Assembly (NCBI GenBank): GCA_001818155.1
Contig: MHJU01000017.1
Coordinates: 1 to 63,475 of the forward strand
Source of the DNA: Candidatus Jacksonbacteria bacterium RIFCSPLOWO2_02_FULL_44_20
Lineage (GTDB): Bacteria > Patescibacteriota > Patescibacteriia > UBA9629
Direction: 5' to 3'
DNA: 63,475 nt
The position numbers were made by a program, and so were the translations under genes. Positions 28,240-47,080 of the stretch are shown here, in pieces (within the stretch, counting starts at the first letter, position 1; each line of letters opens with the position of its first letter). The notes under the pieces were generated by a model that saw only the letters and a list, made by a program, of their open reading frames with translations, was not told the origin of the DNA and did no database searches.

Positions 28240-29028
28240 TTACTCCACCTTGCTCAAAAGCCCCAACTCCCGCACGCGGCGGAACATGCGGGCGTAAAAA
28301 ATGGAGGCGAGAATAAGATAGACGAGGTTTAACACGAGCGCCCACCAAAAATGAAGCGCGGAGAAACCGCTTCCGGCAAACACGCCGCGCATGCCCTCAA
28401 ACACGTGTGTCGCGGGAATACTCCACGCTATGAACTGTAAAAATGAAGGCAAGATCGCAAGCGGATAAAATACCGCGGAGATCGGTTGCAATAAAAATCC
28501 AAGCGAAAACGCGAGTATCTGGGTTTCAGTGCCGTAGCGGAAAATAATCGCGGAAATAAAAATGCCGGCCGCAATTCCGAACAAAAACAGGTTCGCGATA
28601 AACGGTATGAGAGAAAATCCGAGCGTAAAAAGATTGAAGTGATAGAGCAAACCAGCAAGCGCGGAGATGTATCCGATGATAACGAATGTTTTCAGAACAC
28701 CGACAGCGATGCCCCCCAAAAGATACTCCCAAACTGTAAGCGGAGAGACGAAAAGATTAATGATATTGCGCGACCAAATGTCTTCCAAAAATGCAATCGT
28801 AACATCATGCTGTGACGTTATAAACACGCCCCACAAAATCACGCCGCCAAGAAGAAAGGAGGCGACGCCAGGCGCGTTCAACGCTGTTCTTTCTAAAAAT
28901 TGGCTCACAAATCCCCATAAGATAAGCTCCATCGTTGGCCAATAAAACACGTCCATCACCCGCGGGAGCGAGCGCTTTGAGTGGTACCAGTAGTGTAAAA
29001 TTATCGCGTTAATACGGTGGAGTTTCAT
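28240..29028 (-). CDS. ABC-2-type transporter permease
   Basis: Six TM helices in 262 aa, with an ABC-2 permease pattern. No ATPase gene is adjacent; the only ABC-2-type ATPase is at 37220..38143. Confidence 0.75.
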   Translation of the reverse strand: MKLHRINAIILHYWYHSKRSLPRVMDVFYWPTMELILWGFVSQFLERTALNAPGVASFLLGGVILWGVFITSQHDVTIAFLEDIWSRNIINLFVSPLTVWEYLLGGIAVGVLKTFVIIGYISALAGLLYHFNLFTLGFSLIPFIANLFLFGIAAGIFISAIIFRYGTETQILAFSLGFLLQPISAVFYPLAILPSFLQFIAWSIPATHVFEGMRGVFAGSGFSALHFWWALVLNLVYLILASIFYARMFRRVRELGLLSKVE

Positions 29029-29082
29029 GGTTTTTAGGATATATCACAATCGGCAGATGAACAAACAAAAATGCCTTAAAAA

Positions 29083-29934
29083 TTAGACAGCGCTTGTGCC
29101 GCTTTGCCGATTATACACCGCCTGAAAATAATAGAACACCCACTGATTTGCCGATTTTCGCCCTTTGAAAAACAGGAGAGGCACGTCTGGAAACTCGGCG
29201 CACAAATCGCCAATAACGCGGGCGATAAAGGCGCCTTGGTAAAACTCGTTTTTTTCGGAAACAAAATCAGTGTACGATCCTTCAAACACAACGACGCGGT
29301 GAGGAAACTTTGCCATCTCCTGCAATTTTGCGCGAAACACATCAAGGTGCCCAAGCTCATGGAGAAAATTCTCGCGCGTCTTTCGTTCAACAATCGCAAC
29401 GATCGCATCGCCAATGCAAAGCGCGTAATCGCCTGATTGAAGCGGCGCGCGTCTTGTCTCTATCGCGCCAAACTGATACGGATACCGCTCGTTTGAGTCA
29501 ATGAGCACTGTGTACTCGGCTCGTTTGGTTTTAGGAATATACGCGCCGCGCCGTTCGGCAATACTGGACGATTGGGTAATCCAAAACACCTGCGTGTAAA
29601 ATGTGCCCGGATATTTTTTATATTCTCTTTGAAGAAAAATAAACCACGAGCGTTTATTTTTTGGACGGTTAAGAATAACCGTAAGCCGTTTTCCGTAACG
29701 GCGAATGGAAAATATGGCGCATTCATCAACTGGTTTGACTTTCGGAACCGTTTTTGATCCAACTATACCCTCAAACTTGCAAAAGACATTTTTTCCAGGG
29801 CCGGGCCATTTCTCCGCTGTACGCAAAAAAACAAAACTCCCGTGCTTTTCCTCAATAAAAAGCGAGAAGGGATATTTTTTATCGTCATTGCTTTTATAAA
29901 TGCGCCAGCGTAAGGGCAAGTTATGGGTAGGCAT
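29083..29934 (-). CDS. ERCC4 (XPF/Mus81-like) nuclease-domain protein with unknown N-terminal domain
   Basis: VLIDSNE ... LQSGDYAL ... VERKTRENF follows the ERCC4 pattern D/E...GDY...ERK. The residue after ERKxxx is N, not the canonical D. Confidence 0.55.
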   Translation of the reverse strand: MPTHNLPLRWRIYKSNDDKKYPFSLFIEEKHGSFVFLRTAEKWPGPGKNVFCKFEGIVGSKTVPKVKPVDECAIFSIRRYGKRLTVILNRPKNKRSWFIFLQREYKKYPGTFYTQVFWITQSSSIAERRGAYIPKTKRAEYTVLIDSNERYPYQFGAIETRRAPLQSGDYALCIGDAIVAIVERKTRENFLHELGHLDVFRAKLQEMAKFPHRVVVFEGSYTDFVSEKNEFYQGAFIARVIGDLCAEFPDVPLLFFKGRKSANQWVFYYFQAVYNRQSGTSAV

Positions 29935-29968
29935 AAAGATAAAAGCGACTGCTTTACTTAACTAAATA

Positions 29969-31540
29969 CTATTCCTTATTTATAACCACCCGCACCTCCA
30001 GAATTCTATCCACCCGAAACACGCGTGTGTCGCGGCGGGTATGGCAGTAGGCTTCAGTGCCGATGTAAGATTTTCCCATGTATTCCATTTCTCCCACAGT
30101 TTTGGGCGTGATAACGCGGCGGGATTTTTCATCCTGCGCTTTGAGGTAGGTTATTTCAAGGTCGCGATTTTCGGCGATGGCGCGTTCAATGAGCTTCACT
30201 TTGTCTTTAAGCGACAATGCTTTTTCAGATTTGGCGTACTGATATTTGGTCAAGAATTTCACCACGCGCCAATCCATCCAGATATGCCCTTTTTTTATCG
30301 GCTTTTTCAAAACCAACCCTTCAAAATTTGTGCACCGCGAAAGCGCCACATAAAGCTGTCCGTGCGCAAATGTGCCGCGTTCAATGTCAACAATCACTTT
30401 CTCAAATGTTTTCCCTTGACTTTTGTGAATGGTGACTGCCCATGCAAGCATCATCGGATATTGCGTGAACGATCCAACCGTATCCGATTCAATCTCCCTC
30501 GTCGCTTGATTGTATCTAAAATTATAGAGATCCCATGTATACGGACTCACCTTCTCAACATCTCCGTCTTGAAGCTGAACTTCTATGCATTCGTTCTCGC
30601 TTTCCGCATCGTATGAGACATTAACGATAACGCCAATCGTGCCGTTTATCCATCGCCCTGCTGAATCGTTGTTCACCATCATCACCTGACTGCCGACTTT
30701 GAGAGATAAGTTTTCCGATGTCGGAAGGTGACTCTTGTCAAACGCGCCTCGCGCTACGCCTTGAAATGTGTACAACTTCCCTTTTAGTTTCGCAAGTTCT
30801 CGCGCGTTTATTGCTTCAGCGCCCGCGTTTGTCGTTGTGAGATATATGTACTGCTCGTGTTTTTGCGGCTCAAATTCCGGGTCATGGCGCTTGTTTAGCG
30901 TGCCGATCTCCTCAACCCCTGCGGTATTATTGCGAATTGCATTCAGAAGCGAGATAAAACGATCGTCAGTTTGGCGGTAAATTTTTTCAAGCTCAATGAT
31001 TTCAGGCTTGAGTTCAGAAAACACGCGCGCGTCAAAAAAATACGGGCTTTTGTAATGCCCGGCAAAAATTTCGCGCTCGCGCGATGTTACCACAGGGGGA
31101 AGTTGATACAAGTCGCCAAACGAGATCAGCTGTACGCCTCCAAACGGCGCGCGCTTTTTGGTCCCGTGCAGGCGTAAAAATATATCAATGCAATCCATCA
31201 AATCCGCGCGCACCATGGACATTTCATCTATCACAAGAGCTTGTAATTTTTTGTACGTCTCGCGATCTTTTGCGTGTACTGCAACATCTTTAACGCTCGC
31301 AGGGGTAATATCCGGCTTGAAACGAAAAAACGAGTGAATGGTTTGCCCCTTCACATTCACCGCCGCGACTCCTGTTGGCGCAAGCACCACAAGCGACTTT
31401 TTCGCGCGCTCCCGAAACACCTGCAAAAGCGTTGACTTTCCTGTTCCCGCTTTGCCAGTAACAAACACGTGCCTGTCGCCTTGCTCCATAAGCGCGAGAG
31501 CCTGCTTAAAATGCGGGTTGAGGTCTATTTTAAAACGCAT
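29969..31540 (-). CDS. Pif1/RecD-like SF1B helicase with C-terminal WYL-like domain
   Basis: Walker A GKAGTGKST. LVIDEMSMV. GDLYQLPPV. TIHKSQG. C-terminal ITYLKAQDEKSRRVITPKTVGEMEYMGKSYIGTEAYCHTRRDTRVFRVDRI. Start set at internal ATG (M10). Confidence 0.75.
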   Translation of the reverse strand: MRFKIDLNPHFKQALALMEQGDRHVFVTGKAGTGKSTLLQVFRERAKKSLVVLAPTGVAAVNVKGQTIHSFFRFKPDITPASVKDVAVHAKDRETYKKLQALVIDEMSMVRADLMDCIDIFLRLHGTKKRAPFGGVQLISFGDLYQLPPVVTSREREIFAGHYKSPYFFDARVFSELKPEIIELEKIYRQTDDRFISLLNAIRNNTAGVEEIGTLNKRHDPEFEPQKHEQYIYLTTTNAGAEAINARELAKLKGKLYTFQGVARGAFDKSHLPTSENLSLKVGSQVMMVNNDSAGRWINGTIGVIVNVSYDAESENECIEVQLQDGDVEKVSPYTWDLYNFRYNQATREIESDTVGSFTQYPMMLAWAVTIHKSQGKTFEKVIVDIERGTFAHGQLYVALSRCTNFEGLVLKKPIKKGHIWMDWRVVKFLTKYQYAKSEKALSLKDKVKLIERAIAENRDLEITYLKAQDEKSRRVITPKTVGEMEYMGKSYIGTEAYCHTRRDTRVFRVDRILEVRVVINKE

Positions 31541-31585
31541 AGTAAAAATATAAATACCCGAAATCAAAAATAAGTGGAATACTGT

Positions 31586-31804
31586 TTACATCACCGCCTC
31601 AAAAACATCCGATGGCTTTTCAAGCGCCTTAAACTCCCACACGCCAAAGTTGCTATTCAAATTCACCGCTCTAACCAACTCTTTTGCGGATGTCCATTTT
31701 GCGCTATCCTGATCTGTTTTCCTGCCCTTAACTTCTAAAATTAAATAACGATTATCCGCAAACTTAATTATGAAATCCGGAAAGATAGTAAATTTCAAAT
31801 TCAA
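31586..31804 (-). pseudogene. Remnant of the PD-(D/E)xK C-terminal module of a restriction/helicase-type gene
   Basis: FPDFIIKF...YLILEVKGRKTDQDSAKW resembles the nuclease C-terminus of type III Res-like proteins. No ATG (TTG only). In frame with, and 9 codons after, the TAG of the 1514-aa gene. Confidence 0.35.
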
Positions 31805-31828
31805 GGTGGTCGTTTTTTGCCCATGATA

Positions 31829-34800
31829 CTAAATAACCGGCTCTATTCCCATATCCTCCAATTTCACCCAAAGCGTCTTTAACCCTTGCTCTTTGTTTTT
31901 ATAAAAAGCACTGCCAGTAATTCGCCAAAACTCCCACCCCGCTCTTCTTAAAACATTTTCCCTCCTTAAGTCAGCCTCCCAATCCGTATGATATTGATCA
32001 CCATCGCACTCTACTGCCAACCGAGTGCTTTCTCCCTGTATAACCAAATCAATACTGTAACCTGCAATCTCAAACTCTGGAATAACTTTATACCCTTTAT
32101 TTAAGATGATATTCCCTACATCAAACGGAAATTCAAACGGTCCGTGTTTTCTTTGTTCAAGAGCTTGTTTTAATGCCTCACGACCCCATTTTATTTCCTC
32201 TTGTTGAGGATTGTAAAACCAATCAAGTATTTTTGCTCGTAAATCATCGGGGTTGGTTAATTCTTTTCGTACAAGAGAATGGAAGAGAATCATTTTGTCT
32301 CTAGCGCGCGACATAGCGACATTTACTCTTTGTTTATATTCTTTTTTATTGATAGTCAATGGCGAAATGCTGTTCTCTGGATTATTTTGATCAGGTGCCT
32401 TAACCATAGAAATGAACATTATATCTCTCTCATCTCCTTGGAACGCATAAGGATTTCCCGCAATAATCTTCCTTTTTTCTATTTCCTCTTCGCTAATTTT
32501 TTGTCTAATTAAATCAGTTATGAATCTACCCTGATCATTTCCTAAAAGCGTTACAACTCCAAAAGTTGTAGGGCGAGTGCCGTCTTTTCCATCAGGTCTC
32601 CCATCATATTGTGAATCATTTATCATCTCAACTAGTTTACTTACAAGCTCTTCTGCTTCTGGTTCATTCACTTCATTATTGATATTCATAAACCCGCTCT
32701 CAACATATATCGCCTCTAACGCAGGAGTTAATTTCCATTTCGATTGAGGATATCTTAACACTTTTAACTGGCCGTCATAGCACAGTTTATTGCTAAAACC
32801 GATAATTTGCTCTACAGATCTAAAATGCTCCAATAACCTTACTCCTTCAGACATCGTTACTTCTGCTACATCAAAGAGGCTTGAGGTTACAGAAAACTGT
32901 TCGCTGTGGGGTATATTTGAGAGATGTTTGGTGATAAGTCCTATAACATCCTCTTGATTGATAAAAGATGTTGGACTTATTTGTTCAGGATCGCCTACAA
33001 CTAAAACTTTTTTCCCTAGATATGCAATATTAACCCCTCGAACATCTACCTGACTCGCCTCATCAAAAATTACAACATCAAACATACCAGCTTTTGGTTC
33101 TGAAAACATATGCAGAACTTTTTCAAGCGGCATAATCCAGATTGGCACCGCATTTTTTGCTTCTTGTTCTTGTAATGCTTCTCGCGCTTTTTTCTCCCAG
33201 TAAGGCCAATATTTACCAGTTCTTTTTCCTATTTTTTTATCGCATTTTGCGTATGCCGCTAAAGCTTTGCGTTGGGATGGCGTAACCTTCTCTTTCTGTT
33301 TTTTCCACGCTGTTGTTGCGATCAGTTCTGCTTCCTGATTTTTTTCTTGATTTTCTGTACGATCCAGTTCTTTTTGAAGTTCTGTTACGCTTTTATCTGA
33401 ATGGATCTCTTCAAGCCAAGACGATATTCGCGCAAGCCCCCAAGCTGTTGCAAGGTTTCCTTGTATTTTATATTTTCCATACTCATCTATTATACTTTCT
33501 TGTATTTCATTGAACAATTTTGGAGCCAAGCGAGATATTTTTTCTTTTAGCTCGCGCAGTTTTTCGGAGTCCCTCTTCTTTTGGTGGAGTTCTGAAAGTT
33601 GTTCATAAAGTTCGCTTAGTTTTTTTTCATTGCGATTATCTATAGCTAAAGATATATCCGCGGCTATCTGATGTTTATTTTTCGCTTTTAGTTCATCCTT
33701 CCAGTTGGTAAAAATATGTTTATACTTGTCTAAATCAAAACTTGCCAATAATGATGTCAAAATAGCAATAAATTTTTCAACCGATTCTTTGTCGGTATAG
33801 GTAAAATTAGAAAAAATTTGATTTTGCTCTATAAATTCTCTTATATCACTGAAGATTTCTTCATAACGCAATATCCTTTCCATATTTTTCAAACGGTCAT
33901 CAAACTTATAAAGCACAAAAGGTTCTTCCAGTTCCTCAAAATCAGAAATATCAGATTGCTTAAATGCCTGATCCCATAAAATTTTGACCTCTATAACTAA
34001 CTGCTCAAGTGTGAGTTTTTTCTTGAGAAGTAAAATAGCTTCTTTTTTTCCAATATCTGAGGAATGAAAAGTAAAATTTTGTAAAATATCTTTTGCGTTT
34101 TTTGACAAGCCAATTTTTTGCAGGAAACCTAAAGACGATCGGTTCCCTGTCTTCTTTTCAATCTCATTAACCGCTTCTAATAAACTTTTAACTGGAAGAT
34201 TAGTATTGTACAAAATATTATGACCTAATAAATTAGCTTGCAGTTGGCGCATTTGAGCGCCTTTTTCTTTTAACCTTTCAAAAATTCCATTCTGCCATTT
34301 TTCTTTTTCCTCGCTATTGTTCAAAATCAACGCAAATAATCTGTCTTCCCATTTTTTATCCATTGCATTTAAAGCGGCATGCGCCGATCCCGCTCTTTGC
34401 AGTATCTGTCTGATCCTTTCTTCTTCAAAAATAGGTGCGCTGTTGAATTTCTTTTGCGCAAGATATTTTTCATAGCGTTTATTGAGAACAAGAGCTTCTT
34501 CATAGTGCTCAAAAAATTTCTTTACATCTTCTATTTTAGGGAGCCGTCCAATTTCCGGCATCCATTGTTCAAAATAACCGCGTTCTTCTTTGGTAAGTCG
34601 CGCAAGCAGATTCACTGTGTTTGTAATATCTTCTTCAGTAAAATCTAATTTTGCATCTTTTGTAATTTTGTCTTTTAACCACATTTTACCGCTTGCGCTT
34701 CCATCCGCCAATTCTTTAGCTCCTTGTGTTGGGGTAAGACACCTGTCTTCAATGAGAAATTTTTCTTCAATATCAAGGAGAACCCACTTTTTTATTCTTG

Positions 34801-36373
34801 ATAACAAGGCCGCCTTTTCTTTGCGTATTTCCTTCAACTGCGCTCTTATTTCTTCAATTTTTTTATCCGTAAATTTCGTAGTATCGTCCAAATTAGCGTT
34901 AATAGTTTTGACTGACATCTGTAGATCATCATGCCGTGAATTACTCTCAACCTGCGATACGATTAAATCTTTAATTTTCTCGGGGATTTTATCTTTTAGC
35001 ACTTCCAGTGCTTTCCCTGTTTGAGATGTTACCAATACGGATTTGCCTTGAGCTAAAAAACGCGAAAGAAGGTTTGCAATGGTATGGCTTTTACCAGTTC
35101 CGGGAGGGCCTTGTACTACAACGCCGTATCTTGCCTCAATTTTATTTACAATTTTTTTTTGGTCATCGTTCCATGTCAATGGAAAATATAGCTCCCCATC
35201 CGCAATAGAAACACTCTCTTCTCCCGCATGGTTTTCTGCGAGCGCAATTTCACCGCCGGCAAGTTCTGTGATAAAAGGGGGCAACTCATTAGCTTTCTCA
35301 ATATCTTGCTGAATTTTCTTTGCGTATTTTGCCCAATCAATATTGGATTTTTTACGCAATAGAATTGTGGGAAAGTGCCAATAGGTAGGCACTTCGCTCA
35401 TTTCAGGTTCAGGAATTTCTTCGGAAAAATTTTCTATTCCATTTGGTGAAAGGTATCCGACAATTTCACTACCTTTTAATTTAAGCGCCTGCTCACTCCA
35501 AACATCGTACCCATCAGAATTTAAAATTTTTGATTGTTCATGAATATCAAGGATATTTGGTATATCCAAACCATCTAAAAAAGAGGTTTCAAAGGCCGTT
35601 TTTAGCGAGTTATCTTTTCTGACCTCAATTTTTTTCTCTTCAGGAAAAAATTCTAAAGTAATAGGGGTAACAAAAAATGGGTGAAAAATCTTTTCGTTTT
35701 CTGTCTTCCATGTAAGTAAGTCATGAGTCCATAACAAATCAAAATTTTCCTGTTCTGTTTTTAGAAATGTTCTTAATCCGTATAAATCATCATAAACTTG
35801 ATTTGCCCTAAAAGTTGGCTCATTTTTTTGTCTCCATTCTTCCCATGATCCAGCTATGTAATTGTCGTACAACTCTTTAAGTTCTGGGAAATCTGTAAAG
35901 AAAAATTCTATATCCCTTTCATGTATTTTGCTCCAGTTTCCTTTTTCATCCTTTGTAATCCAACTATGTAGCATCTTTGGAATATCTTGCTTTTCCGCTT
36001 TTTGAAAATTTTCAAACGCCTTAACCCTCATGTTATCATCCGAAAATTGAATTTTTCTGAATATGGATTCTTTATATTTTGGTTGAGAAAATTCATGACT
36101 ATCAAGCACAACCCATTCCATTAGTTCTAGGGGAAGATTAGGCAAAGGTTCTAATTCATGCTTTTTTACAGAGAGAAAGAGATAATCATCTTGGTTTGAT
36201 TCATGAAAATTTTTAACGAAAAGATTGTCGCTTTGCGGGAAACTCCTAATTTGGCGCATCCATTCCTGTTCTGCCAAATTTCGAAAATCCCTTCTAGTAT
36301 CAATGTTAAGAGAGAATAACTCTTCAAGGTATTTGAAGATATTTATTGCGTTAGTTTTGATTTTTTCAAGCAT
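31829..36373 (-). CDS. 1514-aa SF1 (Upf1/DNA2-like) helicase fused to a C-terminal DUF559/Vsr-like endonuclease; candidate defence protein
   Basis: VVQGPPGTGKSH, VIFDEASQV, VGDPEQISP and VNVAMSRARDKM. C-terminus IDLVIQGESTRLAVECDGDQYH...RAGWEFWRI. The gene is visibly AT-rich relative to its neighbours. Confidence 0.8.
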   Translation of the reverse strand: MLEKIKTNAINIFKYLEELFSLNIDTRRDFRNLAEQEWMRQIRSFPQSDNLFVKNFHESNQDDYLFLSVKKHELEPLPNLPLELMEWVVLDSHEFSQPKYKESIFRKIQFSDDNMRVKAFENFQKAEKQDIPKMLHSWITKDEKGNWSKIHERDIEFFFTDFPELKELYDNYIAGSWEEWRQKNEPTFRANQVYDDLYGLRTFLKTEQENFDLLWTHDLLTWKTENEKIFHPFFVTPITLEFFPEEKKIEVRKDNSLKTAFETSFLDGLDIPNILDIHEQSKILNSDGYDVWSEQALKLKGSEIVGYLSPNGIENFSEEIPEPEMSEVPTYWHFPTILLRKKSNIDWAKYAKKIQQDIEKANELPPFITELAGGEIALAENHAGEESVSIADGELYFPLTWNDDQKKIVNKIEARYGVVVQGPPGTGKSHTIANLLSRFLAQGKSVLVTSQTGKALEVLKDKIPEKIKDLIVSQVESNSRHDDLQMSVKTINANLDDTTKFTDKKIEEIRAQLKEIRKEKAALLSRIKKWVLLDIEEKFLIEDRCLTPTQGAKELADGSASGKMWLKDKITKDAKLDFTEEDITNTVNLLARLTKEERGYFEQWMPEIGRLPKIEDVKKFFEHYEEALVLNKRYEKYLAQKKFNSAPIFEEERIRQILQRAGSAHAALNAMDKKWEDRLFALILNNSEEKEKWQNGIFERLKEKGAQMRQLQANLLGHNILYNTNLPVKSLLEAVNEIEKKTGNRSSLGFLQKIGLSKNAKDILQNFTFHSSDIGKKEAILLLKKKLTLEQLVIEVKILWDQAFKQSDISDFEELEEPFVLYKFDDRLKNMERILRYEEIFSDIREFIEQNQIFSNFTYTDKESVEKFIAILTSLLASFDLDKYKHIFTNWKDELKAKNKHQIAADISLAIDNRNEKKLSELYEQLSELHQKKRDSEKLRELKEKISRLAPKLFNEIQESIIDEYGKYKIQGNLATAWGLARISSWLEEIHSDKSVTELQKELDRTENQEKNQEAELIATTAWKKQKEKVTPSQRKALAAYAKCDKKIGKRTGKYWPYWEKKAREALQEQEAKNAVPIWIMPLEKVLHMFSEPKAGMFDVVIFDEASQVDVRGVNIAYLGKKVLVVGDPEQISPTSFINQEDVIGLITKHLSNIPHSEQFSVTSSLFDVAEVTMSEGVRLLEHFRSVEQIIGFSNKLCYDGQLKVLRYPQSKWKLTPALEAIYVESGFMNINNEVNEPEAEELVSKLVEMINDSQYDGRPDGKDGTRPTTFGVVTLLGNDQGRFITDLIRQKISEEEIEKRKIIAGNPYAFQGDERDIMFISMVKAPDQNNPENSISPLTINKKEYKQRVNVAMSRARDKMILFHSLVRKELTNPDDLRAKILDWFYNPQQEEIKWGREALKQALEQRKHGPFEFPFDVGNIILNKGYKVIPEFEIAGYSIDLVIQGESTRLAVECDGDQYHTDWEADLRRENVLRRAGWEFWRITGSAFYKNKEQGLKTLWVKLEDMGIEPVI

Positions 36374-36473
36374 ATGATCAATTTTAGTTTACGCTTTGCC
36401 CCGCTTCCTGCCCGCGTGCGAATACGCCTCAATGGATATTCTTTTATTTTTTGATGTTCTTCGTTGCATAAAA

Positions 36474-36761
36474 TTAGGCAAGCGGAAATCCGCCTGAAAT
36501 TTTATCAAGCATTTTTATAGTAAGGTCTACTGAAGGATTTTTTGTATTCCGAAAAAAAACTCGTTTTCCAAACTCTTTTACGATCGGCGTTAGAAACTCG
36601 TCGCCCCATGAAGGGGTAAAGGTGGTAACGCCTGTAAAATCTATTTCTACAGATTCTTGAGGCGCTAAAGCTCGAAGAGTTGGCAGATACGCCAAGTACG
36701 CTTCCCTGCCGTCCTGGCGCGATACAAGCAACGTGCCAAATTTTTTTATTTCTATGCGCAT
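36474..36761 (-). CDS. STAS-like (DUF4325-type) small protein
   Basis: 95 aa. VEIDFTGVTTFTPSWGDEFL is the pattern of STAS-like anti-anti-sigma-type domains. Confidence 0.55.
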   Translation of the reverse strand: MRIEIKKFGTLLVSRQDGREAYLAYLPTLRALAPQESVEIDFTGVTTFTPSWGDEFLTPIVKEFGKRVFFRNTKNPSVDLTIKMLDKISGGFPLA

Positions 36762-36765
36762 ATGT

Positions 36766-37173
36766 TTAAAATGAAATCATCGCAATACATCCGCGCAAGT
36801 ATGTGCGCGCGCTTGAGATACGCATAACCGGATCATTTTTTTCTAGCTTAAGAACCGCGCCGCCTGTTTGAAAAAAAAGTTTCAACGGATACTGAACCAC
36901 TGTCTCTCGCACAAATTTTAATCCGTTTCCCCGCGCTTCCGGCGCGCGGCCGGAAATAACTTCTGTAAACGCTATACGGAGCGCTTCTTTATCATCGCGT
37001 ATACCATTCATAACATTTCGCAATGTTTGCAAAATTCCACGGCCGCGATCCGCAAGCGCAATAATTCTTTGATCCAAGCGATAGCCAAAAAAAATACCAA
37101 GAATATCAGGCCAATTTCCAAGATTGTGATCAAAAGAGTTATTGCCTATTTCTCCTGCAACGGCAATGATCAA
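36766..37173 (-). CDS. GHKL (histidine-kinase-like) ATPase-fold protein, possibly 5'-truncated
   Basis: N-box-like EIGNNSFDH at residues 8-16. DRGRGI. GNGLKF. TTG start only. The reading frame is open upstream into the 3' end of the ABC ATPase gene, without any ATG. Confidence 0.5.
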   Translation of the reverse strand: MIIAVAGEIGNNSFDHNLGNWPDILGIFFGYRLDQRIIALADRGRGILQTLRNVMNGIRDDKEALRIAFTEVISGRAPEARGNGLKFVRETVVQYPLKLFFQTGGAVLKLEKNDPVMRISSARTYLRGCIAMISF

Positions 37174-37219
37174 GGGAAAATAATCCTGCGCGCCCTGTAA
37201 AACTATGCAAATACTATAT

Positions 37220-38143
37220 TTACCCCTTCGCCAACTTCAAAAACACCTCTTCCAAATCCGGTTTGTTAATGTCTAAATCATAAATGCCGAAATTTTCGCG
37301 GGAGATTGCCTGCATGGTTTCTCCCAAGTCGTCCGCGCTGGTTTTGATGTGCAAGTGCCCTGCGCTTTCAATTTCAAACTGCCATCCGCGCGTGTTTATA
37401 AATTCAACAAACGCGCTCTCTTTCCCGCTCGCAAAGGCTACTTCTACATAATAATCCCGCGCCGCGCGTTTCAATTCTTCCGGAGCGCCTTCTGCCACAA
37501 TCTTCCCTTTTTGCAAAAAAATCACGCGATCGCACATCTCCTCAACCTCCGACATATTGTGAGACGTGTATAAAAAAGAAACCCCGCGCTCACGGTGAAT
37601 ACGCCGCAAAATATCGCGTACCTTAAAAGCGATGTCCGGGTCCAAGCTTGCGGTCGGTTCGTCCAGAAGCAAAAATTCCGGATCGTTCAGAAATGTTTTT
37701 GCAAGAATCACGCGCGTTTTCTGGCCGCTTGAAAGTTTGTAAAACAAGGTATGCAAAAGATCAGAAATTTCAAGTTCATCCGCAACAGCGGCGATTTTTT
37801 TCCCGAGTCTACGGACGTTATACAATTTCCCGAAGAAATATAAGTTCTCGCGCACTGTGAGACGAGACATAAATTGAATATATGTTGAGGAATAATTGAT
37901 GCGCGAAAGAATTTCCCCGCGGTTCTTTACAAGGTCTTTCCCAAACACACTGATCTCCCCTTCTGTCGGAGAAATCAATCCTAAAATCATCTCAATCGTG
38001 GTTGATTTTCCCGCGCCGTTTGGGCCCAAAAGCCCGAGTATCTCGCCTTTTTTAATATCAAAACTGATGTCGGAAACAGCTGTTTTATCCTTAAATCGTT
38101 TGGTAAGGTTGCGAACAGTGAGAATCATAAAAGAATATGCCAC
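37220..38143 (-). CDS. ABC transporter ATP-binding protein (ABC-2 / DrrA-NatA-like subfamily)
   Basis: Walker A GPNGAGKSTT. Signature LSSGQKTRV. Walker B LLLDEPT. Confidence 0.85.
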   Translation of the reverse strand: MAYSFMILTVRNLTKRFKDKTAVSDISFDIKKGEILGLLGPNGAGKSTTIEMILGLISPTEGEISVFGKDLVKNRGEILSRINYSSTYIQFMSRLTVRENLYFFGKLYNVRRLGKKIAAVADELEISDLLHTLFYKLSSGQKTRVILAKTFLNDPEFLLLDEPTASLDPDIAFKVRDILRRIHRERGVSFLYTSHNMSEVEEMCDRVIFLQKGKIVAEGAPEELKRAARDYYVEVAFASGKESAFVEFINTRGWQFEIESAGHLHIKTSADDLGETMQAISRENFGIYDLDINKPDLEEVFLKLAKG

Positions 38144-38164: not shown

Positions 38165-39607
38165 TTACTCCACTATTCCGCCTGTCTCATAGTGAGAAAG
38201 TTCCGCCTCGCCGACCGCAACAACAACTGCGTCGCCGCGCGCGCGGATGCGAGTCCATGTTTCGCCGGAGCGCAGATGATATTTCTTGCCGCGCGAGATT
38301 AAAAATATCTTCTTGCCCGCCTCAATAGTAAGGTACACCTCATCAGGATACCCAATCTCTAACCCTTCCGGATACGAGTCCAAGTTCTCGCGGCTTGCAA
38401 ACTCAATTCTGCGTGGCGAGGGAAATCGCAGACCCAAAATGGTTTCGTTTGGAATCCACCGTTTTCGCCCATGCTCAATCATATACACGGTCGGGTCGTT
38501 TTCCTGCTTTACAAGCGTGCCGTCTGTAAAAGGCGCGACCAATTTTTGACCGAGCACTGCCGTGGCTGATGGCTCTTCCGGAAGCGGCTCTGGTTCTTTT
38601 TTGTCCTCGTTATCCTCTGTGTCTCGTTCCTCGCTTGTATCTTCCGGAATCGCGGGGCTGTTAGTGAAAGTTGGCGGAATAATCATTCCTGCCGGTGGCG
38701 GAGGCGGGGGTGGCGGCGCAGGCGGAGTGTAAACAATTTTTCGCACAGGATACGAGGCGCCGGCAAGCGCGATTGCCGTATAGGAGGTTGTATTAACCTT
38801 AAAGGCATTTTCAACGTTCTTCTCAGATTCAAACCAACCATCGGGTGTTTGAAGCGACTGCAAAAAGGCAATCGGAGTGTTGCCTACCTTAGACCACGCG
38901 GCGCTTTCGGGGTCTTCGCCAAGTTTATACAGCATACTAACTACCCATGCGGTGGTATCCGCGTTAGAATTCGTTCCATATGGACTTAGAGGATCAAACG
39001 GAAATCCTCCGTCAGCGTTTTGGGAAAGTTTAATATAGGAAACTGCGTTTTGAATTGCTGTGTCTCCCAATGAAACCCCGGCTTCTAGCATCGCCATCAC
39101 GGCCATTGCGGTGTCGTCAACGTCAGATGATCCGATCATAAACCCGAATCCGCCGTCGCTATTTTGATTGTTAAGAATAAATGTTTTGCTTTGTAGAATA
39201 GCCGAATCGTCTGCTGAAACGCCTGCGGCGATGAGCGCAAGGATGCCGAAAATATCGTCATTTAATGTTTGAGGATCCCCGAGTTGATTGTTTGCTGAAA
39301 ACGAAAGTAATTTTGCGACAAGGTCTTCTTTTGCAAATGAACGCGGGTCCCGCCCGAGCGCCGCAATCCCCAAAATTGGCCCGGCGCATGCGATTGCGAA
39401 ATCGCACTTTGCCTCTTTGAGATGATCCTCGGCGATGTCTTCTTCACCAAGAACGTAAAGCGCCTGCGTACTCCAATAATTTTGCGGGGCATTTCTAAGA
39501 TAAAGGCTGGCGAGTTGATTTTTTGACGGCGCCGCGCGAAGCGGTGTTACAAGTCCGGTTGCGATTGCGATAATCGCGAAAAAGGCGAGATGTGATTGTC
39601 GTCTCAT
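38165..39607 (-). CDS. Secreted alpha/alpha-toroid (prenyltransferase/terpene-cyclase-like repeat) protein with poly-Pro linker and two C-terminal surface repeats
   Basis: Signal peptide ending LRAAPS. Repeats QNSDGGFGF, QNADGGFPF and QTPDGWF. Linker PPAPPPPPPPPAG. C-terminal modules resemble those of ORF 10140..12287. Confidence 0.6.
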   Translation of the reverse strand: MRRQSHLAFFAIIAIATGLVTPLRAAPSKNQLASLYLRNAPQNYWSTQALYVLGEEDIAEDHLKEAKCDFAIACAGPILGIAALGRDPRSFAKEDLVAKLLSFSANNQLGDPQTLNDDIFGILALIAAGVSADDSAILQSKTFILNNQNSDGGFGFMIGSSDVDDTAMAVMAMLEAGVSLGDTAIQNAVSYIKLSQNADGGFPFDPLSPYGTNSNADTTAWVVSMLYKLGEDPESAAWSKVGNTPIAFLQSLQTPDGWFESEKNVENAFKVNTTSYTAIALAGASYPVRKIVYTPPAPPPPPPPPAGMIIPPTFTNSPAIPEDTSEERDTEDNEDKKEPEPLPEEPSATAVLGQKLVAPFTDGTLVKQENDPTVYMIEHGRKRWIPNETILGLRFPSPRRIEFASRENLDSYPEGLEIGYPDEVYLTIEAGKKIFLISRGKKYHLRSGETWTRIRARGDAVVVAVGEAELSHYETGGIVE

Positions 39608-39639: not shown

Positions 39640-39835
39640 ATTTGCGATTTCTAATCGCCGATTATTAAAAATTAAAAATTGGAAATTAAAAATTTCTTAA
39701 ATGTCTCTCTGCTCGAAGAGAAGTATTACAAGCGAGTCCATAGACCTGGCTTATTCCAAAACTAGTCGGAAATCACAGTTGCGGCACAGCCGCGGATTTA
39801 AACCGCGTTCCTTGGACTGCTCTATTTGTCAATTG
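39608..39835 (-). promoter_or_regulatory. Cobalamin (B12) riboswitch, aptamer about 39731-39822 plus expression platform
   Basis: Minus-strand RNA GAGCAGUCCAAGGAACGCGGUUUAAAUCCGCGGCUGUGCCGCAACUGUGAUU matches the conserved GGGAA..GGUG.AAAUCC..GC.G.CCCGC.ACUGU core. It is followed by the B12-box-like AAGCCAGGUCUAUGG. Confidence 0.75.
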
Positions 39836-39964
39836 AAAACAGAGTAGTCTAAAAAGAGGATAGCGTCAAGCCTGAATATGCCACAATCTTCACAAGGAAT
39901 AAAGATGTTGTTATACTGTACTCTTAAACTCTTAAAAATTATAAATAATAAACGTACTTACTCT

Positions 39965-41992: not shown

Positions 41993-42067
41993 GCCTCTGT
42001 AGTTTAATGGATAAAACGTCGGGCTTCGAACCCGAAAATGCAGGTTCGATTCCTGCCGGAGGCACCA
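41993..42067 (+). tRNA. tRNA-Arg (anticodon TCG), encoded CCA
   Basis: Acceptor GCCTCTG/CGGAGGC. Anticodon arm TCGGG-CTTCGAA-CCCGA. T-arm GCAGG-TTCGATT-CCTGC. Confidence 0.9.
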
Positions 42068-42089
42068 TCCCGTAAACAGGATGTTCCAC

Positions 42090-42166
42090 GCGCCCATAGC
42101 TCAATTTGGCAGAGCGGCTCGCTCTTAACGAGAAGGTTGCAGGTTCGATTCCTGCTGGGCGCACCA
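42090..42166 (+). tRNA. tRNA-Lys (anticodon CTT), encoded CCA
   Basis: Acceptor GCGCCCA/TGGGCGC. Anticodon loop CTCTTAA. T-arm GCAGG-TTCGATT-CCTGC. Confidence 0.85.
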
Positions 42167-42628: not shown

Positions 42629-44827
42629 TTAAAGCGCCCTCTCCATCTCCACCCAAAATGTTGTGCCTTTATTAAGTTCGCTTGTAAAACCGACTTTTCC
42701 ATTTGGGTGCCCATCCATCAGCTCTTTTGTTATAAAAAGCCCAAGCCCAGAACCGTCTGTATACATACTGTTAGCGTTCGCCCCGCGCTTGAACTTCTCA
42801 AACAACCCAGGCTGATCCTCTTTTGGAATACCGACTCCAGTGTCTTCCACTTCAACTCTCACAACATCCTGAAAAGGCTTTACACGGACAACTATTTTAC
42901 CATCTCTCGGTGTGTAATGCAAGGCGTTTGTGATTAAATTGTCAAACACCACTTCCATATATCTCTCCGATGCGCGAACTAAAAGAGCGTCTCCGGGCGC
43001 TGAAAACGTCAGTGAAATATTTTTCACGCGCGCTTCGTCTTGGTGCATGGAAACGATTTTAGAAACATACGGAATGATCGGAAACCGCGCAATGTCCTGC
43101 TCCTTCAACGTAAACTCGCCGGTGTCGAGCTCCGAAGCGTACAAAATGTCGCGCACAATATGAGAAAGTTTTTCGGTTTTCTCCGCGATTGAGCGATACA
43201 CCTCGTCTTTTTCCGCCGGCGTTTGGCTGTCGTAATCGCCCTCGCGCAACATGGAAACATATCCTTTGATAACTGAAATCGGCGTACGCAGTTGATGCGA
43301 GGCGATATCAAGAAACTGGCCGCGCATCGCAAGAAGCTTTTCCAGATAAACGTTTTTCGCCTTAATTTCTTTTGTCTGATCTTCCACACTCTGTTCCATA
43401 TTTTCGTATAAAAGGGCGTTTTCAAGCGCAATTGCGGTTTGATTTCCGAGCGTTTCTAATAATTCTATATCTTCTTTTGTGTATGCGTCCCGCGATATCT
43501 TCGCGCCAAGAAGAAGAAATCCGATCAGTTCCCGCTTCACGACAAATGGAATGCAAACCTCGCCGCCTATTTTCTCCATATACTTCTGAATCTTTATGAA
43601 TTTTTCCGCGCCTTTATCTCTATGTCTATGCTCCATTGCCATGAACTGAAGCTCGTCTTTCACAACCGCCTTTTTGAAATGGCGGACCCATCTTGTAAAA
43701 AAACATTCCTCAAGATCGCACGACACATTTTTTTTACTCTCAAAGCCGACTGAATGAACAAGATGATAACAATGATTCGTTGAATTCTGCGCAAAAATCC
43801 TTACTGACTCAATATCCAAAACTTCATGCACCGTTTCAGTGATTAGCGAGCTGATTTTTAGAACGTCAACGATTCTAGTGAGCTTGCGTGTAAGAGATCG
43901 GAGTGTCTTTTGCGAATTATAGATGCTTGCGTAAAGATAACGGTTTGTGAGTTTAATGATACCCTTTTCCACAAGCGGCAAAACGAGCACAAACGCAATC
44001 GCAATGAATATCCCAGTGATAAGCGCGGGTTTCACCCACACGGACCCAAACGCCCGCACCATCGCCCATGTTACAAGATGAAACATTCCGTAGATAAAAG
44101 CCGCAAGAATAATTCGGATAGTTCCCCGGCGGACGACGAGATGGATGTCAAATAGGCGGTAGCGAATCATTGTATACGCATACATTGAAATATAGATAAT
44201 AACAATGGGATTACCGTATGGCGGTATATTAATATCATACCAAAAAGGAAAATTAGTAGAACCAAAAATGACCCCTAGTAGCAAACCGATAAATACATGT
44301 TTAATTTGTTGATGTTTTATCCCTTGATTCCTACGAAGGTGAACCAATAATTGATAAAAACCAATGATATGTAAACCAATAAAATTAATAAATAAATAGA
44401 TATGATATAACGGACCAGGTTTAGGCCAAAATGGAAATCCGTATGTAAGTTCAACATCTCGCACAAATAAAGAAGAATATGCAAACAGTAAAAAAATTAC
44501 ACTTGAAATATATCCATACCATAAAAGCCATTTATACTTTTTTTCAATACCGAGAAAAGAGAAAATCCAGTGTAAATGAAAAATTGGAATCAAAATAGAA
44601 CCAAGTCCTAGGCTACGGACTAAAAATAACGCTTCGTCATGATTATCTGCAAGTAACCATAACCCATAAAAAAAAGACCATGTCGCTATAGACAGACACA
44701 TGAAGAAAAAAATAAATTTTAATCTAGGATCGCCTTTACTTTTGAACAACGCAACAAAACCAACAAAACAGGTAATAATACTAATCGCAAAACCGGAAAT
44801 TGATAATAATCTTATAATAGAATCCAT
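42629..44827 (-). CDS. Sensor histidine kinase (N-terminal 7-TM region, GAF, HisKA, HATPase_c)
   Basis: H-box DIASHQLRTPISVIKGY. N-box NLITNALHYT. DTGVGI. GSGLGLFI. Confidence 0.8.
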   Translation of the reverse strand: MDSIIRLLSISGFAISIITCFVGFVALFKSKGDPRLKFIFFFMCLSIATWSFFYGLWLLADNHDEALFLVRSLGLGSILIPIFHLHWIFSFLGIEKKYKWLLWYGYISSVIFLLFAYSSLFVRDVELTYGFPFWPKPGPLYHIYLFINFIGLHIIGFYQLLVHLRRNQGIKHQQIKHVFIGLLLGVIFGSTNFPFWYDINIPPYGNPIVIIYISMYAYTMIRYRLFDIHLVVRRGTIRIILAAFIYGMFHLVTWAMVRAFGSVWVKPALITGIFIAIAFVLVLPLVEKGIIKLTNRYLYASIYNSQKTLRSLTRKLTRIVDVLKISSLITETVHEVLDIESVRIFAQNSTNHCYHLVHSVGFESKKNVSCDLEECFFTRWVRHFKKAVVKDELQFMAMEHRHRDKGAEKFIKIQKYMEKIGGEVCIPFVVKRELIGFLLLGAKISRDAYTKEDIELLETLGNQTAIALENALLYENMEQSVEDQTKEIKAKNVYLEKLLAMRGQFLDIASHQLRTPISVIKGYVSMLREGDYDSQTPAEKDEVYRSIAEKTEKLSHIVRDILYASELDTGEFTLKEQDIARFPIIPYVSKIVSMHQDEARVKNISLTFSAPGDALLVRASERYMEVVFDNLITNALHYTPRDGKIVVRVKPFQDVVRVEVEDTGVGIPKEDQPGLFEKFKRGANANSMYTDGSGLGLFITKELMDGHPNGKVGFTSELNKGTTFWVEMERAL

Positions 44828-44833
44828 GCCTTT

Positions 44834-46258
44834 TTATAAAGAAGGAAGGGGCGGATTGTTTTGTATCTGTGAGATATCTGCCTCCTTATTTGAAAACATA
44901 AATATATGATATATTTTTTTTGAATCTTCTTTCTCGGCGACAAGATGTACATGAGACGGTTGCCCCAAAGTTTTATTACTTGCTTCACTAAATGTCTGGA
45001 TCAATTCACCTCGGCTAGCGCCGTACATCTGTACTTTTAACTCTTTTGACCAGCGAAAAATAGATTCTAGCACATTTTGTTGTGGGTATGAATTCCCATT
45101 CGCCGCTTTGCCAATATGTGAAACAATATAAAAACTTTCCGGATGAGAAGCGAACATAGAGAAAATGTTAGCGTTAAAATTTTTCCGAATGCGCGACGAA
45201 AAATAATCATCCATACCAGCACATTCAATAATCACTGAAGTTCCGTCATCAACGACTACCCCATAAGAGCCAAGGAAGTCCTTAAGTATCTGTTTTCCTC
45301 CTATGACTTTGCTTAAATCATGCGGCAAAAATTTACACAATGATTGAACGCCGTACTCTTGGGCTTTCACCTGACTTTTAGCTACAGATTCCTGATCAAA
45401 GTCAATAAGAATCGCTTCTTTAATATAATCCTGTAATTCTTTTACTACATCTAATACCCCGCGCCCCATGCCTGAACCCAAACTGATAATGACCGGTTTC
45501 TTGCCTTTTTCACGATTTACAATAATCGCTTCATGTAATAATTGTTGGACAATATCCAGACGCTCGCGTGTCCCCTCACTTATAGGCAACTCTAAAGTAA
45601 TAATATCGGTTGCGATGTGTATTAATTCAGTAATGAGATCATTATTATTCTCTAATATCTTAGCATCACTAAAATCAATTGGGGAGCGATCTTTAATTGT
45701 CCCTGCAAAATCATCCAATTCTTTTTGAATCCAGTTTGGGTATCCGTAAATATGATCAAGTGTGACACCTGTTGCCGGAGACGTACGAATACGTTCTGTA
45801 TTTGGTGAACTGGTAACTAGTTCAAGCGAAACGTCATGCAAATTTTTTTTATTCGGCAATACATCAGAAAAGTAAATATACTCTGCGGCACGAGCTACAA
45901 TATTTTTTTTCAATTGCTCTATTGTAATAGTGCTGTCTGAAGCAATAATCTGCTCCGCAAACATTTGTAGCTCTAGCCGAAACCATTCATCAAATTGTGT
46001 AATCTCTTTCTGTGCATCAATGCTATTTGGATTCTCTAACACCGTAACAATATGGGGAGACATTTTAAAAAAACAATCCATCCACGATTCCGGTGTGTCA
46101 GGTTCACCTTCTCTCCAAAATAACTGATCCGTAACTTTTTCACGTCGTGGAAGCTCTAACCTTTCAACTAGCTGTTGTTCTACTGTTGTATTAGTAGGAA
46201 GGATGCGCATTAACCGCCCCTCATCAATAGAACCTTCCATTTTAGAACTATCGCTCAT
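44834..46258 (-). CDS. Hypothetical protein with C-terminal class-I SAM-methyltransferase-like fold
   Basis: VIISLGSGMGRGVLD (motif I-like), ILIDFD (motif II-like) and IIECAGMDDY. The N-terminal ~240 aa are unassigned. Ends 6 nt before the kinase start. Confidence 0.4.
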   Translation of the reverse strand: MSDSSKMEGSIDEGRLMRILPTNTTVEQQLVERLELPRREKVTDQLFWREGEPDTPESWMDCFFKMSPHIVTVLENPNSIDAQKEITQFDEWFRLELQMFAEQIIASDSTITIEQLKKNIVARAAEYIYFSDVLPNKKNLHDVSLELVTSSPNTERIRTSPATGVTLDHIYGYPNWIQKELDDFAGTIKDRSPIDFSDAKILENNNDLITELIHIATDIITLELPISEGTRERLDIVQQLLHEAIIVNREKGKKPVIISLGSGMGRGVLDVVKELQDYIKEAILIDFDQESVAKSQVKAQEYGVQSLCKFLPHDLSKVIGGKQILKDFLGSYGVVVDDGTSVIIECAGMDDYFSSRIRKNFNANIFSMFASHPESFYIVSHIGKAANGNSYPQQNVLESIFRWSKELKVQMYGASRGELIQTFSEASNKTLGQPSHVHLVAEKEDSKKIYHIFMFSNKEADISQIQNNPPLPSL

Positions 46259-46417
46259 ACTTTATAAGTTTCTCAAAACTAATCCAAGATACTCTTCTTT
46301 ACAAAAAAAAGCAAGGACGAGCGTTTTTTTACAAATATTTTCAAAACAATAAGCGCAAAAAAGACGGAAATGGCAGGAATGGTAATGGCGTCTGTTGTTC
46401 TAAAACTGAAACATCGT

Positions 46418-47080
46418 TTAAGATTTCAACTCTGCTATTAATGAAAACAAGCGAACCAAATCTTCTTTTGTTAAATTTTGATAGCGACCAAAATTTTTGA
46501 CAACCAAATGCGCTTCAGGACACATGTTAATCGCTCTGTCAGATAGTCTATATTTTACCTCTTCCGGTTTATCTTTTATTAAATCAGGAGATCTCTGCCG
46601 CATTCTTTCATCTCGCAAGTCATCAGGACTATACACCGCAATAATTAAAGATTGCTCAAGCAAATCAGACGGCATAACACTTTCTTTATTATTAATGATA
46701 GCATCATTCCCCGAAAAAATTGGAATTTTGCTTTTATCAACATTCAAGAAACCATATCGCTCTTCGCGATTTCCTTCCATTTTTCTCACCCAATGCAATC
46801 CGATATCTCCACATTGAACCATCTTCTCAAATTCATCGGCAGTTACAAATTGATTCTCTACGAGATTATCATTGGCTCTCTGCGGTCTAGTGATAACTCT
46901 TTTGGGAATTTGAAAAACCGAAGCGAGTGTCTCATTGGTTTTCATCGCGTTTCTAACCGCATCAACGAGTGTAGTTTTTCCAACAAGAGAAGAGCCAACA
47001 AAAATTATATCTGAAATCTGCTTGAGCTTTTCAAGATTTCTTGCTCGCAATCTGATGCTACTTAAATCTCTTGATTCCAA
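46418..47080 (-). CDS. Guanylate-kinase/PhnN-like P-loop kinase
   Basis: Walker A GSSLVGKTT. RVITRPQRANDNLVENQFVTADEFEKM parallels the Gmk/PhnN TTRPPR...Y.FVS.EEF segment. Confidence 0.5.
   Translation of the reverse strand: MESRDLSSIRLRARNLEKLKQISDIIFVGSSLVGKTTLVDAVRNAMKTNETLASVFQIPKRVITRPQRANDNLVENQFVTADEFEKMVQCGDIGLHWVRKMEGNREERYGFLNVDKSKIPIFSGNDAIINNKESVMPSDLLEQSLIIAVYSPDDLRDERMRQRSPDLIKDKPEEVKYRLSDRAINMCPEAHLVVKNFGRYQNLTKEDLVRLFSLIAELKS

Follow-up and report, generated by a model that had tools for sequence, protein, structure and literature searches.

A composite and probably variable gene segment inside the DrrAB-type ABC-2 operon of a groundwater Parcubacteria population

Introduction

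How 8.2 kb of DNA has come to lie between the ATPase gene and the permease gene of one ABC-2 transporter, and what this DNA encodes, are the questions raised by contig MHJU01000017.1, from which a window of 63,475 nt (the whole stretch of DNA analysed) has been examined. The segment under study (positions 29029-37219) carries six open reading frames (ORFs), all on the minus strand, as are the two ABC genes, the first gene of the operon and the candidate riboswitch described below. According to the record names, the source population belongs to the groundwater Parcubacteria of the candidate phyla radiation (CPR). An initial annotation, made from the nucleotide sequence, had described the six ORFs as wedged between the ATPase and its presumptive permease and had interpreted them as a defence island. 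The ORF coordinates have been rechecked and agree, and the domain labels given to the six ORFs all held in searches with Pfam, NCBIfam, PADLOC and Foldseek.

The analysis reveals that the segment is composite and that a 5.4-kb block within it (31829 to ~37195), with a low GC content at third codon positions (GC3), is foreign. The whole is probably a variable region that has built up in the spacer of a DrrAB-type ABC-2 operon whose ATPase and permease genes were originally adjacent. As a variable hotspot, which it probably is, the segment is genuine but rather ordinary, with nothing categorically new; what sets it apart is its position within an operon, where it separates two cognate transporter genes. 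Hotspots of variable or defence-type content can sit there without releasing the transporter genes from purifying selection, and such CPR transporters should not be scored as “orphan” or “broken”. The same arrangement is found, at 99.6-100% identity, in independent assemblies of the same species that span the island, so that it is neither an assembly artefact nor a chimera. Two sets of gene calls (1514/72/523 aa and 1482/gap/506 aa) gave the impression of variants within the population, but the DNA beneath them is 99.8-100% identical, and the calls alone differ.

The split ABC-2 transporter

The upstream flank of the segment is formed by a DrrA-type ABC-2 ATPase gene (37220-38143; 307 aa, full length), whose product matches Pfam ABC_tran (7e-33) and DrrA1-3_C as well as TIGR01188 drrA (212 bits). 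The downstream flank is an ABC-2 permease gene (28240-29028; 262 aa, full length) with Pfam matches to ABC2_membrane and ABC2_membrane_3. Such genes had been described as normally adjacent, and the relatives agree: an ATPase homolog is located directly upstream of the permease homolog in 70 of the 76 informative genome loci (permease 39-48% and ATPase homolog 43-58% identical), and in the metagenome loci, where the ATPase is 42-56% identical, all 17 informative cases have a permease homolog directly after the ATPase homolog, with a gap of 10-30 nt. Both the domains and the adjacency in relatives are those of a DrrAB-type operon, and in the window 8.2 kb breaks this adjacency.

The ATPase homologs align up to residues 303-307 of 307, and both the ATPase and the permease of the window align end to end with their homologs, so the insertion lies exactly in the spacer between the two genes. 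No other ABC ATPase or ABC-2 permease is encoded in the 63-kb window. The ratio of nonsynonymous to synonymous substitution rates (dN/dS) of the permease is 0.096 against its relative in L021 (94% identity), indicating that the permease is still under purifying selection. The two genes are a cognate DrrAB-type pair split by an insertion, and what had been called a presumptive permease is the full-length partner of a full-length ATPase.

Composition and boundaries of the segment

The six genes fall into two classes of base composition. GC3 is 0.30 for the large helicase-nuclease gene (total GC 0.36), 0.365 for the STAS-like gene and 0.37 for the GHKL-like gene. The values for the ERCC4-like and Pif1-type genes are 0.48 and 0.53, those for the ABC ATPase and permease 0.50 and 0.59. 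The mean of the window is 0.449 (standard deviation 0.068), and the flanks of the foreign block reach 0.47-0.59. The low-GC3 block (31829-37195) comprises the truncated GHKL gene, the STAS gene and the helicase-nuclease gene, and both of its ends abut or cut genes. At the ATPase-side junction (37174-37219) a spacer of ~24 nt is followed by a breakpoint near 37195, where homology to a helix-turn-helix (HTH)-GHKL family begins mid-gene. At the permease-side junction (29029-29082) nucleotide homology with the relatives L021 and L022 ends at the permease start codon (29028-29030).

A block of low GC content bordered by truncated genes might be what is left of a degraded integrative mobile element, namely a prophage remnant or integrative island that entered by one site-specific insertion and later lost its integrase and att sites, and homologs of the helicase-nuclease do stand beside resolvase or integrase genes elsewhere. 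The searches, however, have provided none of the expected marks. Integrase and transposase domains are absent from the six ORFs (Pfam, NCBIfam), and the longest word common to the two island boundaries measures 9 nt, whereas shuffled sequence gives 7.9 nt on average and up to 12. Neither at the island ends nor at the ends of the low-GC block were att-like repeats beyond chance detected. The absence of integrase, transposase and flanking direct repeats, already remarked in the initial annotation, is thereby confirmed. No tRNA or tmRNA gene adjoins the island as a target, the nearest tRNAs lying at 41993-42166, and the block ends inside genes, not at an att-like site. A prophage or other mobile-element origin was also rejected on account of the lack of phage-structural PHROG matches and of IMG/VR viral contigs related to the HTH-GHKL family or to the helicase-nuclease. 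A single site-specific insertion of this kind is unlikely. Block ends that cut genes, with no integrase and no repeats, point instead to illegitimate recombination or to insertion combined with deletion.

Gene content beside the permease in related genomes

Three relatives (L021, L022 and L102) retain the synteny of the flanks. In L021 the permease is 94% identical and the downstream phosphoribosyltransferase, FemAB and RuvA genes are kept. Upstream of the permease, at whose ATG nucleotide homology ends, this relative carries a 129-aa membrane ORF and the C-terminus of a DUF4143 protein (L021 3-344). In L022 the permease is 68% identical, and a long fragment of a BPTD_3080 gene, cut by the contig end, stops 41 nt before it. 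In L102 the ATPase is 72% identical and its T2SSE neighbour is kept; the contig ends 38 nt past the ATPase stop. The set of six genes is seen within the species alone, and the possibility that relatives conserve it between the ABC genes does not apply: the transporter pair is contiguous elsewhere, and L021 and L022 carry other genes upstream of the permease. The differing cargo next to the permease in L021 and L022 gives the site the appearance of a long-lived hotspot flanked by core genes.

Comparable sites are core defence hotspots and flexible genomic islands with conserved core genes on either side, such as cDHS1 and cDHS2 of Pseudomonas aeruginosa (Johnson et al., bioRxiv 10.1101/2022.11.11.516204). 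The present segment resembles them in its fixed site between conserved host genes, in cargo that, beside the permease, varies among relatives and is partly of lower GC, in not being bound to one mobile-element family, and in the large share of cargo of unknown function. In contrast to cDHS1 and cDHS2, it interrupts an operon at the spacer between an ABC ATPase gene and its cognate permease gene and does not lie between independent core genes or beside a non-coding RNA. The comparison here covers three lineages, on the permease side only, in a CPR host with a small genome, and the segment holds no validated defence system.

The other side of the permease has also been compared. In L021 some 830 nt (1533-2365), with ORFs of 92 and 158 aa, separate the permease from the phosphoribosyltransferase gene, the corresponding spacer of the window being 37 nt; the downstream side of the permease is thus variable as well. 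The window itself encodes two AAA_14-DUF4143 ATPases (48397-49662 and 56864-58396), to which the DUF4143 C-terminus of L021 is not orthologous.

The restriction-enzyme stub

The 72-aa ORF (31586-31804) corresponds to positions 901-963 of the 970 positions of NCBIfam model NF046055 (BPTD_3080), with an E-value of 8.8e-14 and 50.4 bits. Members of BPTD_3080 have a full length of ~970 aa and score at least 800 bits, and the ORF falls short of both. With the C-terminal end of the L022 gene it shares 79% identity; that gene matches the model over positions 699-961 (218 bits) up to the contig end. Restriction-enzyme homology sets in at ~31785, no more than 45 nt past the stop codon of the helicase-nuclease gene, whose C-terminus is native to its own family. 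Given this native end and the short distance to the restriction homology, the restriction gene lacks ~900 codons. Judged by these matches, the ORF represents the presumably dead last 72 codons of a helicase-type restriction endonuclease of the BPTD_3080 family.

The helicase-nuclease

The largest product of the segment (31829-36373; 1514 aa) combines an Upf1-like superfamily 1B (SF1B) helicase, with Pfam matches to AAA_11 and AAA_12, and a C-terminal Vsr-like nuclease matching MTES_1575/DUF559 (MTES_1575 at 1.6e-25). Its motifs are intact: Walker A (GPPGTGKS, aa 422), the Walker B motif DEASQ (aa 1104), motif VI (VAMSRAR, aa 1352) and the PD-(D/E)xK-type residues IDLVI/AVECDGD (aa 1441-1459). 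These are the features of a fusion of an SF1B helicase with a Vsr-like nuclease. More than 4800 homologs exist, full length at ~40% identity, and no solved structures match beyond the helicase cores of Upf1, Sen1 and Dna2.

Three described groups come closest. In PADLOC, the protein matches PDC-S37 (PDLC05009) with 190 bits and an E-value of 1.2e-56, residues 405-1507 aligning with model positions 298-1340 of 1550; the N-terminus remains unmatched and no threshold exists for this model. The PADLOC score for Hhe, a single-gene anti-phage protein, is 114 bits. The NCBIfam model of Hhe (NF042953) gives 133.6 bits against a cut-off of 2000, the best stretch being residues 1093-1507, and that of ProA (NF058533) gives 194.2 bits against a cut-off of 1500, residues 390-1507 aligning with model positions 639-1705 of 1903. 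The origin of the name ProA was not found in a literature search. All of them are large polypeptides with an SF1 AAA_11/AAA_12 core and a C-terminal MTES_1575/DUF559 Vsr-like endonuclease, and they share variable or mobile contexts with the protein of the window. Unlike these three, the latter possesses an N-terminal region of 390 aa that matches no detectable family and ~570 K/E/L-rich residues between Walker A and motif II; it lies far below the cut-offs of Hhe and ProA and belongs to a family of its own with more than 4800 proteins. Neither DUF4011, the N-terminal domain expected of Hhe, nor DUF3320 was detected in it. By these alignments it appears to be a distant relative of Hhe, ProA and PDC-S37 and not a member.

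The neighbourhoods of its homologs are diverse. A homolog of 65% identity (L188) stands alone among housekeeping genes, one of 42% (L190) is located amid genes for SNase, PDDEXK/RNase H, S24 peptidase, DEAD helicase, AbiEii and resolvase, and a third, on a plasmid, has a type I restriction-modification system and an integrase in its vicinity. Within the island, the helicase-nuclease is likely the only plausible active component of defence, and such a role is slightly more probable than not. The protein would translocate on invading nucleic acid with ATP and cut it with its Vsr-like PD-(D/E)xK domain. It is an intact member of a very large uncharacterised helicase-Vsr family whose named members are annotated as Patescibacteria; given that the immune repertoires of the CPR are poorly known, it is worth testing as a single-gene defence candidate.

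The Pif1-WYL helicase and the ERCC4-like nuclease

The two genes nearest to the permease encode a Pif1-WYL helicase (29969-31567, with a TTG start; the true start is probably the ATG at 31540, giving 523 aa) and a two-domain ERCC4-like nuclease (29083-29934; 283 aa). The helicase matches Pfam PIF1 (4e-29) and WYL (4e-11; WYL domain at ~29987-30199). Over residues 14-527, WYL region included, it aligns with PDB 8bns_A at an E-value of 5.7e-197, and it has the features of a bacterial Pif1-WYL protein. It is therefore a full-length match to the solved bacterial Pif1 with a C-terminal WYL domain (PDB 8bns, 8bnv). It differs from these in that the window protein, as well as one in L196, is paired with a two-domain ERCC4 nuclease. 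To our knowledge, no nuclease pairing is known for the solved Pif1-WYL proteins.

The ERCC4-like protein scores 27.3 bits in Pfam ERCC4 (cut-off 24), its catalytic domain being encoded at ~29134-29478. Residues D146, E149, D169, E183, R184 and K185 are invariant in 26 homologs. The AlphaFold model (predicted local distance difference test, pLDDT, 89) consists of an N-terminal all-beta domain and a C-terminal catalytic domain of the ERCC4/XPF/Hef type. Foldseek matches this model to Hef (1j22; TM-score 0.72 normalised to the target) to XPF (2bhn) and to 2bgw, with E-values of 1e-5 to 1e-4. The protein thus shares the catalytic D...E...D...ERK signature and the fold of the nuclease domain with archaeal and eukaryotic XPF, Hef and Mus81. 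In contrast to them it is bacterial and small (283 aa), lacks a helicase domain, has no HhH2 among its Pfam matches, and carries an N-terminal all-beta domain that weakly resembles the p97-N domain. The family was considered extremely rare on the basis of the 26 proteins found by word index, yet a profile search gives 110 representatives at E <=1e-30; it is small, not tiny.

In L196 an ERCC4 homolog (59.9%) adjoins a Pif1-WYL homolog (58.7%) in the opposite order, possibly overlapping it (L196 7001-9410). This pair, whose two members have diverged from those of the window to a matching degree, is embedded among FtsZ, ComEC, NDK and RadC genes and has the local GC content of 32-34%. Other ERCC4 homologs have a type I restriction-modification system and Smr as neighbours, or else a RadC N-terminal domain and a spore photoproduct lyase gene; of the four contexts outside the window, three have RadC or its N-terminal domain in the neighbourhood of the ERCC4 homolog. 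From the host-like GC and the pairing among housekeeping genes in L196, the two genes look like an ameliorated, co-inherited repair or replication module. They probably form a repair module that would process replication forks, flaps or G-quadruplex (G4) structures or act in repair; a defence role is less probable.

The same genes might suggest that the whole segment is mainly a cluster for DNA repair and replication, in which Pif1, ERCC4 and the SF1 helicase-Vsr protein serve genome maintenance in a reduced CPR genome. The Pif1-WYL protein is indeed a canonical bacterial Pif1, ERCC4 homologs occur near RadC, Smr, ExoVII and spore photoproduct lyase genes, and the 65% homolog of the helicase-nuclease stands among housekeeping genes. 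Against this, the helicase-nuclease block is compositionally foreign, its family recurs in mobile and defence contexts, the content of the segment is not kept in the relatives with 94% and 68% identity, and the stub of a restriction enzyme lies in its middle. This explanation is quite improbable for the segment as a whole.

The GHKL/STAS cassette

At the ATPase end of the foreign block, a GHKL-like ORF (36766-37173; 135 aa) is followed 4 nt past its stop by a STAS-like ORF (36474-36761; 95 aa, full length). The former had been noted as lacking an ATG, with a frame open into the 3' end of the ATPase gene, and this is correct: it starts with TTG, and its frame is open upstream to 37236, 14 nt inside the ATPase gene. 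No Pfam match exists for it. A search returned 1073 homologs; the proteins of the family measure 226-237 aa, possess an N-terminal MerR/HTH_17 domain and, where members are named, belong to the CPR. The closest full-length homolog (P0002) is 81% identical and carries MerR/HTH_17. The copy of the window lacks ~95 N-terminal codons (HTH and linker) and starts at the N box, so that the HTH typical of the full-length form is missing. Homology begins at AQDYFP, seven codons above the TTG and ~25 nt past the ATPase stop. The in-frame translation of the junction, GAQDYFP-LIIAVAGE, aligns with residues 89-103 of P0002 (SAQDYFPLIVAIAGE), and no match is found further upstream.

The invariant residues of the N, G1 and G2 boxes (E103, N107, D137xGxG141, G177-N-G-L-K) are present. 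For the AlphaFold model of P0002 (pLDDT 90), Foldseek finds the ATPase folds of GyrB, ParE, Hsp90 and SiaB (6kko_B). Despite the missing Pfam match, the assignment of the ORF as a GHKL (Bergerat-fold) ATPase/kinase module is right, given the boxes and this model. The STAS-like ORF scores 25.1 bits in Pfam DUF4325 (cut-off 23) and is 51-55% identical to partner proteins of 95-97 aa in L182 and L185; its TPSWGDE motif is, by analogy, a candidate phosphoacceptor site.

Bergerat-fold boxes beside a STAS-fold partner are the marks of a GHKL kinase/STAS pair, and as in RsbW-RsbV, SpoIIAB-SpoIIAA and SiaB-SiaC, the gene for a small Bergerat-fold kinase is located directly upstream of a STAS-like gene of ~95 aa. 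The differences from these three pairs relate to the fusion of a MerR/BldC-like HTH to the kinase in the full-length family, to a partner of the uncharacterised DUF4325 type without an obligate link to a sigma factor, and to the loss of the HTH from the window copy. The GHKL/STAS pair would act as a partner-switching pair whose DNA-binding output is lost in this copy. The cassette of MerR-HTH+GHKL and DUF4325 is essentially undescribed, DUF4325 being scarcely mentioned in the literature searched. With the Pif1-WYL/ERCC4 pair it is one of two little-studied modules at this locus.

The two genes form an independent cassette, which spans 36474-37173 in the window, 8001-8991 in L182 and 7001-8005 in L185. 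It follows an N6_N4 methyltransferase gene in Vogelbacteria (4-nt spacing) and precedes an ECF sigma factor gene in another lineage (12-nt spacing); in a third lineage the GHKL gene lies near a resolvase. In none of these three other neighbourhoods is a helicase next to the GHKL gene. A dedicated sensor role of GHKL/STAS for the helicase-nuclease was rejected on this ground and because homologs of the helicase lack the cassette, as judged where upstream sequence existed (L197 has only 80 nt upstream).

A patch of 118 nt within the GHKL ORF (36816-36933) is hypervariable. Over 13 kb, the window and L181 differ by 12 single-nucleotide polymorphisms (SNPs), every one of them in this patch, and they turn LEKNDPVMRISS into LKKNDPALHIAS in L181. 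Assembly breaks lie at or near the patch: L101 ends at 36902, L007 and L009 end at ~36917 and 36935, L018 starts at 36891, and L006 and L016 have gaps or N-runs in it. Gene conversion, strain mixing or diversifying selection could be the cause. A diversity-generating retroelement was rejected, since the 63-kb window contains no repeat of 36761-36960 and the Pfam lists of the neighbours no reverse transcriptase domain.

Origin of the segment

The described anatomy is consistent with a build-up of the variable region in three layers of different age. The Pif1-WYL and ERCC4 pair, of host-like composition and co-inherited, would be the first. The second would be represented by the 72-codon 3' end left by a BPTD_3080-type restriction gene once located at the site. 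As the third layer, the 5.4-kb foreign block would have replaced most of this restriction gene, arriving by illegitimate recombination or by insertion and deletion. Homologous recombination between the conserved ABC flanks could exchange entire sets of cargo.

Several observations weigh against this reading. The cargo of L021 and L022 is known on the permease side alone, both contigs ending before the ATPase side. No contiguous ATPase-permease pair turned up in any relative above 60% identity; when and in what order the insertions took place is inferred. In L021 and L022 the Pif1/ERCC4 pair does not stand beside the permease and is therefore lineage-specific cargo as well. Other genomes encode short GHKL-only forms (~134-141 aa) that begin with a genuine Met at this very position, and the truncated copy may accordingly still be made and functional. 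None of the island genes reaches the thresholds of validated defence families in PADLOC or NCBIfam.

Furthermore, the helicase-nuclease homologs of L197 (79%) and L190 (42%) are followed at 17 nt by a PDDEXK_1 gene (L197 4642-5400; L190 11613-13139). A stand-alone character may thus not hold for the whole helicase family, and the helicase and a PDDEXK_1 nuclease may be a recurrent pairing. These two PDDEXK_1 genes are mutually unrelated, one product being a Cys-rich protein of 252 aa, Cas4-like by eye, and the other a protein of 508 aa with RNase_H_2. The 72-aa stub was also considered as the remnant of such a partner; it has no significant similarity to the genes following the two helicase homologs and resembles the BPTD_3080 C-terminus instead.

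The defence island of the initial annotation stands in part. The helicase-nuclease and the restriction stub are of defence type, but the six genes are not one coherent active island. Likewise, the domain labels behind the statement that every product is a nucleic-acid-targeting or sensor-type protein held, but the stub is dead and the GHKL protein has lost its DNA-binding third. PADLOC, proposed there as a check, detects no complete known system, NCBIfam likewise, and the ERCC4, STAS and GHKL proteins have no PADLOC match at all; the PADLOC matches to candidate or validated families are partial, and the sole clear restriction gene is the 72-codon stub. That the six genes arrived together as a single coherent island, with GHKL/STAS as sensors and the helicases and nucleases as effectors, is very improbable and largely refuted by composition and independent neighbourhoods. 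In its favour, the ORFs are tightly packed on one strand, all encode nucleic-acid-acting or signalling domains, the helicase-nuclease partially matches PDC-S37, Hhe and ProA, and the region is identical across the population, but composition divides the segment in two, two ORFs are truncated remnants, no modules except ERCC4 and Pif1 are paired in any other genome examined, and PADLOC finds no complete system.

Operon context and other features of the window

Upstream of the ABC ATPase, a prenyltransferase-like alpha/alpha-toroid protein (38165-39607; 480 aa) is encoded by the first gene of the operon. It matches Pfam Prenyltrans and SQHop_cyclase_C, and its translation begins with a hydrophobic, signal-peptide-like stretch. 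A probable adenosylcobalamin (AdoCbl, B12) riboswitch (39690-39838; Rfam RF01482) is located 83 nt upstream of this gene; the match covers the full length of the model and, at 52.9 bits, exceeds the gathering score of 50. As the candidate riboswitch precedes the gene that heads the operon, the split transporter seems to belong to a B12-regulated operon, which likely consists of the toroid protein, the ABC ATPase, the island and the permease. In 18 related loci no B12 riboswitch reached the gathering threshold. A scan for promoters and terminators gave chance-level output and was uninformative.

A more far-reaching picture can be drawn, which we regard as improbable. The spacer of the operon led by the B12 riboswitch would be a long-lived cassette-exchange hotspot of Parcubacteria, at which genes for defence and DNA processing change places by recombination, with the ATPase and permease genes as homology arms, and ride along on the transcript of the operon. 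In the same picture, the widespread HTH-GHKL/STAS cassette specific to the CPR would represent either a novel regulator of the partner-switching kind or an abortive module, and diversifying selection would act on the patch at 36816-36933.

Further stretches of low GC (35-39%) are present in the window at 44001-48000 and 55052-56326. One of them includes an ORF of 424 aa with a GC content of 0.345 and no Pfam match, and another spans a Methyltransf_20-like gene of 474 aa and a NUDIX gene.

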